From Escherichia phage vB-EcoP-XT73, in sequence record OR757436.1: a stretch of 64,000 nucleotides of DNA, one strand, 5' to 3'. Shown piece after piece: positions 17,178 to 17,825 of this stretch. A model generated the notes under the pieces. That model had not been told where the DNA came from. It saw only the letters and a list, made by a program, of their open reading frames with translations, and did no database searches. A program made the position numbers and the translations under genes. Within the stretch, counting starts at the first letter, position 1. Each line of letters begins with the position of its first letter.

Positions 17178-17825
17178 ATGATGGCGAAGAAAACAACACC
17201 TACAAGATATCGAATTCATGGAATCCCTATTAAATACATCTCAAACTATGAAGAGTTTTACAGAGTGAACTGGAAAGTGGTTCACAAGTTCTTCATGTAC
17301 GATATCAGAGATTACCATGAAGCAGAAGATGTGGCACAGGAAGTGCTCTTGAACGCTTGGAGATTTGTCTTCGCTAAGCAGGATGAGAGAGTCCTAGAGG
17401 ACGAGAAAGACCAAGAGCATATGACTTATCGAGTCAAGAACATTATCTGGTCTATACGCTCAAATAGGCAGACTGTAGGAGACCGTCGTATCTACTCTAT
17501 TCCAGAGGCTGATATGTTCCGTACTCCTGATATGGTTGATAGTCCTTTAGAGATTGCTATGGATAAGCAAGACTCTGTTGGTGACCCATTCATGGAGTCC
17601 CGTATCTTCTATTTCTTCCAAGATTTAAGTGATACGATGGATACTCAGAAGTTAGCTAATATGTTCTCGATGATTTTCTTGGGTATCCCCCATGATCACA
17701 TCCAGAAAACTATTGGCATGTCACATGGAACTTTCTACCGTCGTTACGCAGAGTTAAAAGATCTGTATGAATATGTGGTAGAGAAGCACTTTGATAAAGA
17801 AGAACTACAAGGACTAGTAGCATGA
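17178..17825 (+). CDS. ECF-type sigma factor-like protein
   Basis: [12 protein letters not shown] resembles sigma region 2; the C-terminal [19 protein letters not shown] resembles a region 4 helix-turn-helix. Confidence 0.5.

Follow-up and report, generated by a model that had tools for sequence, protein, structure and literature searches.

The closest described system to the protein analyzed here is gp36 of phage phiEco32, a textbook-level case of host RNA polymerase (RNAP) takeover by a phage sigma factor, for which genetics, biochemistry and, since 2025, a structure have already been done. Both gp36 and a second phage protein, gp79, co-purify with the host RNAP from infected cells (PMC12276001), and gp36 forms a holoenzyme with the E. 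coli core (PMC12276001; PMC8948821). [quoted passage not shown] The co-activator gp79, which is present in all phiEco32-like phages (PMC8948821), blocks the sigma-70 and sigma-S holoenzymes and activates RNAP-gp36 3- to 4-fold at P68 and P26 (PMC12276001). Six gp36-dependent promoters with the consensus tAATGTAtA have been located upstream of the phiEco32 genes 6, 13, 26, 40, 58 and 68, with transcription starting 6–8 bp downstream of the promoter element (PMC8948821; PMC4331800, Guzina and Djordjevic 2015). This single-element promoter was ascribed to the absence of region 4 in gp36 (PMC8948821, Lavysh et al. 2022), but the later cryo-EM structure of gp36 on the E. coli core together with promoter P68 and gp79 (PDB 9M7Y; PMC12276001, Xu et al., NAR 2025) revealed that gp36 does have a sigma-4-like domain contacting the -35 region. 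A further phage-encoded sigma factor, SaPh711_gp47, is known from Salmonella phage 7-11, a related podovirus of C3 morphotype, whose promoters are found at similar genome positions and whose sigma factor competes with sigma-70 for the core (PMC8948821). It differs from gp36 in its sequence (about 15% identity) and in its bipartite promoter GTAAtg-(16)-aCTA, phage 7-11 has neither a gp79 homologue nor host shut-off or a middle class, and SaPh711_gp47 is regarded by the authors as independently acquired (PMC8948821).

We analyzed 64,000 nucleotides of Escherichia phage vB-EcoP-XT73 (sequence record OR757436.1), a stretch that we call the window. It is a Kuravirus (Gordonclarkvirinae) genome, and in the 6 kb around the sigma ORF its DNA is 94% identical to phiEco32 and 99.4% identical to Escherichia phage vB-EcoP-XT32. 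A local BLAST against the first 50 kb of phiEco32, leaving out its positions 50001–77554, assigned window positions 1–20100 (+ strand) to the middle and replication genes, running from 68 down to 27, and positions 20165–48840 (minus strand) to the late and structural genes, running from 26 down to 1. Judged by its position, the part to the right of 48840 should be the early region; it contains + strand ORFs and a tRNA-Arg at 59608–59682, and in phiEco32 a tRNA-Arg is likewise found in the early region. The genes around the sigma ORF are as follows.

15419–16165, + strand: gene 40 homologue, assigned by synteny with phiEco32
between the gene 40 and gene 37 homologues: gene 39 homologue, Rz-like spanin, assigned by synteny with phiEco32
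16715–17158: gene 37 homologue with a macro domain, assigned by synteny with phiEco32
17170–17174, + strand: Shine-Dalgarno sequence AAGGA of the sigma gene, read off the sequence
17178–17825, + strand: predicted sigma factor gene, ortholog of phiEco32 gene 36 (ORF of 215 aa; PHROG 1740; identity to gp36)
17822–18091: DUF3310 gene, directly after the sigma gene
18093–18914: 5'-3' exonuclease gene, after the DUF3310 gene

This order (gene 40, spanin-like gene 39, macro-domain gene 37, sigma gene, DUF3310 gene and 5'-3' exonuclease) agrees with phiEco32. A difference is seen directly behind the sigma gene, where phiEco32 carries genes 35 and 34 (about 1.28 kb, a dNMP kinase/ATPase included) and the window has, at 17813–18092, a mere 279 bp with a stand-alone DUF3310 ORF of 89 aa (17822–18091), which aligns to the C-terminal half only of the 'dNMP kinase' profile PHROG 26149.

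The ORF at 17178–17825 is present on the + strand exactly where the original prediction had placed an ECF-sigma-like protein, with 215 aa and its stop included. Of the two ATG codons at its 5' end (ATGATG), the second (17181) is the start used both for the PDB chain and in the annotation of phiEco32, which gives 214 aa, and this is likely the true start of the gene. Compared with phiEco32 gp36 (phi32_36, ABY52837.1) the protein shows 98.1% identity over the full length of 214 aa, with four substitutions (K28R, F209L, I213V and T214A in gp36 numbering). It matches chain F of PDB 9M7Y at E=5e-144 and, again over its full length, PHROG 1740 'RNA polymerase sigma factor' at E=1.8e-45. We put the probability that the ORF product is the phage's own promoter-specificity (sigma) subunit, orthologous to phiEco32 gp36, at roughly 97%. 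The idea that the phage redirects the host RNAP with a sigma factor of its own, which had been put forward from the DNA letters, is borne out by this near identity to a protein whose role as a phage sigma factor has been demonstrated by experiment. Observation and interpretation were both right, yet what they describe was already known. Many GenBank records of these phages still label the sigma gene 'hypothetical protein', so that the assignment is of value for annotation.

The mechanism has been demonstrated for the 98%-identical gp36 and is carried to the window protein by orthology. Once the early genes have been read by the host sigma-70 holoenzyme, the window protein would, like gp36, bind the E. 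coli core RNAP. An acidic patch of D44, E47, E49, D50 and E54, with which gp36 holds the β' clamp helices, would seat the N-terminal sigma-2-like domain of the window protein there (PMC12276001). The same domain would melt and read the AATGTA element at -14 to -9 with W90 and Y83, which in gp36 stack at the fork junction, and with N95, S91, S94, E79 and H80, which make the base contacts to the -10 region (PMC12276001). The C-terminal sigma-4-like domain, which in gp36 is compact and grips the flap-tip helix with M138, I142, F166, L167 and F204, would bind the β flap-tip helix and touch the -35 region, where R187 of gp36 contacts G-37 and Y186 is placed at A-34 (PMC12276001). Transcription would thereby shift to three middle promoters (genes 68, 58 and 40) and three late promoters (genes 26, 13 and 6), with gp79 displacing sigma-70 region 4 and clamping onto gp36, to which it docks at F146, M164, L167 and I169 (PMC12276001). 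The residues named in PMC12276001 are without exception identical in the window protein (24 of 24), comprising 20 contacts to clamp, -10 region, flap tip and -35 region and four contacts to gp79. No gp79 was found in the 64-kb window (best tblastn match E=0.41); by synteny with phiEco32 (52601–52849) its locus falls within the approximately 12 kb of the genome that lie outside the window.

With curated profiles the protein is hardly recognized as a sigma factor. The resemblance to sigma region 2 that had been noticed in the sequence is weak but detectable, as Pfam Sigma70_r2 matches residues 25–63 with 19 bits (E=0.0012) and stays below its gathering score of 24. For region 4 there was no Pfam match at all (Sigma70_r4 and r4_2), even at E≤10, and the profile search proposed for sigma70 regions 2 and 4 thus returned a sub-threshold match for the first and none for the second. 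The region-4 helix-turn-helix is beyond the reach of curated profiles and is established solely from the structure solved for gp36, with its 98% identity. The guess of such a helix-turn-helix nevertheless agrees with the newer data, because the structure shows a sigma-4-like domain touching the -35 region. A single-sequence AlphaFold2 prediction (mean pLDDT 42.6, pTM 0.34) was too poor for a fold search; the predicted N- and C-terminal halves are helical, and in a model of such low confidence this, together with the length of 214 aa, can only be read as compatible with a sigma-2 plus sigma-4 arrangement lacking regions 1.1 and 3.

The label 'ECF' holds for the two-domain architecture but finds no backing in the profiles, where all curated ECF and sigma-70 models score below their cut-offs. 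If the protein were instead an ECF (group 4) sigma factor of ordinary bacterial type, taken from a host and working like sigma-E/sigma-24, one would expect a bipartite promoter of the AAC/CGT type, regulation through an anti-sigma factor and activity that does not depend on a co-activator. The two-domain size of 214 aa would suit such a protein, GenBank records, that of phi32_36 among them, carry the label 'RNA polymerase ECF sigma factor', and there are weak matches to NCBIfam models: TIGR02937 (sigma70-ECF) aligns residues 24–193 to model positions 3–157 of 165, spanning region 2 and region 4 (E=4.9e-5), and several ECF subfamily models are matched with E=1e-4 to 0.1. These scores are, however, far under the curated cut-offs, with 23 bits against 42.9 for TIGR02937 and 11–21 bits against 124–344 for twelve ECF subfamily models, the latter covering region 2 only. 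Besides the unmatched region-4 profile, the promoter logic differs, since AATGTA at -14 to -9 is not of ECF type. In the gp36 structure helix alpha-1 is rotated by about 70 degrees, helix alpha-4 of sigma-4 is shortened and the flap-tip helix is rotated by about 100 degrees (PMC12276001), departures which speak against an ordinary ECF sigma factor as does the 3- to 4-fold activation by the phage co-activator gp79. Among solved structures at E≤1, gp36 (9M7Y chain F) was the sole match and no bacterial sigma factor was found, and a tblastn search (E≤1e-5) found the protein confined to 98 phage records, all of Escherichia or Shigella phages. What gp36 does have in common with bacterial ECF sigmas is a minimal build, in which the N-terminal domain is sigma-2-like and sits on the clamp helices and the C-terminal domain is sigma-4-like and sits on the flap tip, together with the weak region-2 profile similarity, but it has no anti-sigma partner, and no anti-sigma family was detected among the neighbours of the sigma gene (macro domain, DUF3310, exonuclease). 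We therefore consider a bacterial-type ECF sigma factor very improbable.

A phage sigma factor depending on a small partner is also known from T4, whose late sigma factor gp55 is very divergent, recognizes mainly one extended -10-like element and needs the small flap-bound phage protein gp33 as co-activator for full activity, much as gp36 is paired with gp79. T4 late transcription is in addition coupled to the sliding clamp gp45, unlike that by gp36. A detectable sequence relation between gp55 and gp36 is not known, and gp36 differs in that it contacts the -35 region with its own sigma-4-like domain.

The assignment as a gp36 ortholog is accompanied by its promoters, as all six published gp36 promoters are present in the window at orthologous positions and with the published sequences.

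4103–4114, + strand: box TGGTAGTAGATA in the -35 region of P68, separated from the downstream motif by 11 nt
4126–4134, + strand: P68, middle promoter, AAATGTATA, 39 nt upstream of the gene 68 homologue (4174–4500)
9156–9164, + strand: P58, middle promoter, TAATGTATA, upstream of the gene 58 homologue (9201–9524)
15352–15360, + strand: P40, middle promoter, TAATGTATA, upstream of the gene 40 homologue (15419–16165)
24625–24633, minus strand: P26, late promoter, TAATGTATA, upstream of the gene 26 homologue
39686–39694, minus strand: P13, late promoter, TAATGTATA, upstream of the gene 13 homologue (38900–39652)
47373–47381, minus strand: P6, late promoter, TAATGTAGA, upstream of the gene 6 homologue (46888–47361)

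The accessible part of Table S2 of PMC8948821 gives P6 as TAATGTAgA and P13, P26 and P40 as TAATGTATA, and 'AATGTA' occurs six times in the table file, consistent with six promoter rows. The recurrent motif TAATGTATA, which had been pointed out along with the sigma-like ORF, is indeed enriched and corresponds to the published gp36 promoter consensus: five exact copies are found in the window compared to 0.74 expected, a number reached in none of 100 shuffles. The set of sites with one mismatch is not enriched overall (19 found, 20.9 expected) and includes two of the known promoters, those at 4126 (+) and 47373 (minus). The -35 regions of the tAATGTAtA promoters in the window are variable. P68 has both bases that gp36 touches in the cryo-EM structure, G at -37 and A at -34, and A at -34 is found in all seven gp36-type sites of the window, including a seventh site described below. 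In none of the GenBank records that we viewed were the promoters correctly annotated.

Three observations were made on the late promoters. The ORF list begins gene 26 at 24631, which is an artefact, the ATG there sitting inside the P26 motif; as this ATG within tAATGta is in frame, the ORF appears extended by 15 codons, and the real start at 24586 gives 1473 aa, the same as in phiEco32. Only 11 nt separate the end of P6 from the start codon of the gene 6 homologue (ATG), with AGGAG directly behind the motif; if transcription begins 6–8 nt downstream, as published, the mRNA would be nearly leaderless or else the annotated start of gene 6 would be wrong. P26 and P13 share TAAGACCTA at -39 to -31 (24648–24656 and 39709–39717, minus strand), which differs from the box TGGTAGTAGATA of the middle promoter P68 and might separate the late from the middle class. 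As a shared late box TAAGACCTA was rejected, the 9-mer being too common with 30 sites at up to one mismatch in the window compared to 19.7 expected.

For the expression of the sigma gene itself two elements can be considered in addition to P40.

16187–16210, + strand: terminator-like hairpin AGCCACC-TTCG-GGTGGCT (16187–16204) followed by TTTTTCG, between genes 40 and 39, found by pattern match only
17130–17159, + strand: sigma-70-type promoter candidate TGGACA-18-TGTAAT inside the gene 37 homologue, located by alignment to phiEco32

The sigma gene is part of the co-directional string 40-39-38-37-36 headed by P40, and positive feedback is therefore plausible, by which gp36 could boost its own synthesis via this promoter. 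The hairpin after gene 40, a strong terminator-like one, may attenuate P40 transcripts ahead of the sigma gene. For phiEco32 it has been proposed that a predicted sigma-70 promoter inside gene 37 could drive gene 36 (PMC8948821), making it a possible source of the first sigma burst. The equivalent of 17130–17159 in phiEco32 reads TGGACA-18-TATAAT, whereas the window has G at the second position of the -10 hexamer, where an A is normally essential. As this key A is missing, the sigma gene may be expressed differently at early times in this phage. A scan of positions 14900–20300 with the sigma-70 consensus was uninformative (12 sites, 11.9 expected) and did not pick up the candidate at 17130–17159.

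The weakened putative sigma-70 promoter in gene 37 and the rearrangement beside the sigma gene, in which the gene 34/35 region is replaced by the 89-aa DUF3310 ORF, could also be taken as signs that the gene is decaying or inactive in this genome. We judge this to be most unlikely, as the frame is intact with just four conservative substitutions and none of them at a functional residue, all six cognate promoters are intact as well, and no other promoter type is evident for the late structural genes. Even less credible is a stand-alone helix-turn-helix activator or repressor instead of a polymerase subunit, for which the helical prediction of the C-terminal part, the helix-turn-helix suspected in the original prediction and the sub-threshold sigma profiles might be quoted, since it is refuted for gp36 itself by the cryo-EM structure, which puts the 98%-identical protein at the sigma position on the core RNAP, since the gp36 holoenzyme transcribes P26 and P68, and since the clamp-helix and flap-tip contact residues are all kept here.

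The first gene behind P40 is the gene 40 homologue, encoding a protein of 248 aa that belongs to PHROG 6599, a family annotated without function, and for which no Pfam match was obtained. Its C-terminus reads ...YEDDNDSPF, and in the tail ...DDNDSPF we see a resemblance to the acidic tip in which SSB proteins of bacteria and phages end.

One exact copy of the motif was left that belongs to none of the six promoters. It lies back to back with P40 at a distance of 63 bp and borders a conserved non-coding block.

15280–15311, minus strand: seventh gp36-type promoter candidate, composed of TAATGTATA (15280–15288) and the box TGGTAGTAGATA (15300–15311), divergent from P40
15120–15290, no strand assigned: conserved non-coding block of about 170 bp, leftward (downstream) of the seventh promoter candidate

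The exact 12-mer TGGTAGTAGATA has two copies in the window, one at the seventh site and one in the -35 region of P68, each 11 nt from the motif. We aligned the seventh site from 11 genomes of three genera (Kuravirus, Suseptimavirus and Nieuwekanaalvirus) and found that the motif never changes and the box hardly does, with a freely varying spacer in between. A conserved motif and box with a free spacer is the pattern expected, at the level of sequence, of a functional bipartite promoter, and the seventh site is probably a gp36-type promoter. ES17 keeps the seventh site; its P40 motif is missing from the aligned stretch, which is followed by an inserted gene of 144 nt. The site is not among the six gp36 promoters in the accessible parts of PMC8948821 (Table S2 included) and PMC4331800, and as an addition to the lists of gp36 promoters it may be new.

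The conserved block shows 93–98% identity to that of SU7, which belongs to another genus, compared to 62–90% in the flanking coding DNA and 79.6% between the sigma proteins of the window and SU7. It is found in 98 phage records, equal in number and organism breakdown to the records with the sigma protein, and is almost never annotated as a gene among them. A small protein encoded by the block was considered and rejected, as indels of 1 and 2 nt between genomes break every frame. Hairpins in the block are GCAGG-N5-CCTGC and the long AATAGAGAAT...ATTCTCTATT; on the + strand TTTTTAT comes after the long one, which might double as a terminator of that strand. The block also contains direct repeats AGTCCCTA..AGTCCCTA, both of which become AGTCCT..AGTCCT together in three genomes. 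In ECBP2 and ES17 the middle part of the block is swapped for another sequence.

Searches for a known RNA in the block gave no family in Rfam at a relaxed threshold (noise only) and no tRNA with ARAGORN. The single-sequence fold of the block had z=-1.9, and with RNAalifold on 9–11 genomes the covariation term was close to 0 for either strand, which is explained by the sequences barely varying. A scan of IMG/VR for the block found five contigs only and added no diversity. The GC skew followed the gene orientation and gave no origin signal, and a literature search for an antisense RNA or an origin in these phages returned nothing relevant. The gene left of the block varies, with a metallophosphatase here and small ORFs in phiEco32, which makes a specific antisense regulator less likely. 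From these data the block may encode a small RNA, serve as a replication origin primed by a transcript, or act as a terminator/operator region. Tentatively, and with less than even confidence, we suggest that the seventh site could function as a gp36-dependent middle promoter like P68, firing away from P40 into some 150–170 nt of the block (about 15120–15275), whose conservation far exceeds that of any gene beside it, and that the block could be a small RNA or a transcript-primed origin. An origin would resemble oriF/oriG of T4 or the primary origin of T7 by analogy, combining a phage promoter with a downstream element, and it would adjoin gene 40 with its product carrying the SSB-like acidic tail. 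If true, the seventh site would add an unlisted transcription unit to a model system and might show where replication begins, or where a regulatory RNA is encoded, in the Gordonclarkvirinae.

Two further loci stand out from the surrounding genes. An ORF of 85 aa at 19455–19712 has a borderline match to the WYL domain (21.1 bits, cut-off 21.8) and adjoins an HNH-like ORF (19070–19492). To the left of the conserved block, the window carries an insertion relative to phiEco32 at 13955–15085, which encodes an HNH_3 endonuclease (13955–14437) and the calcineurin-like metallophosphatase (14447–15085), and a phosphoesterase is present at the same site in ECBP2, EK010 and SU7.
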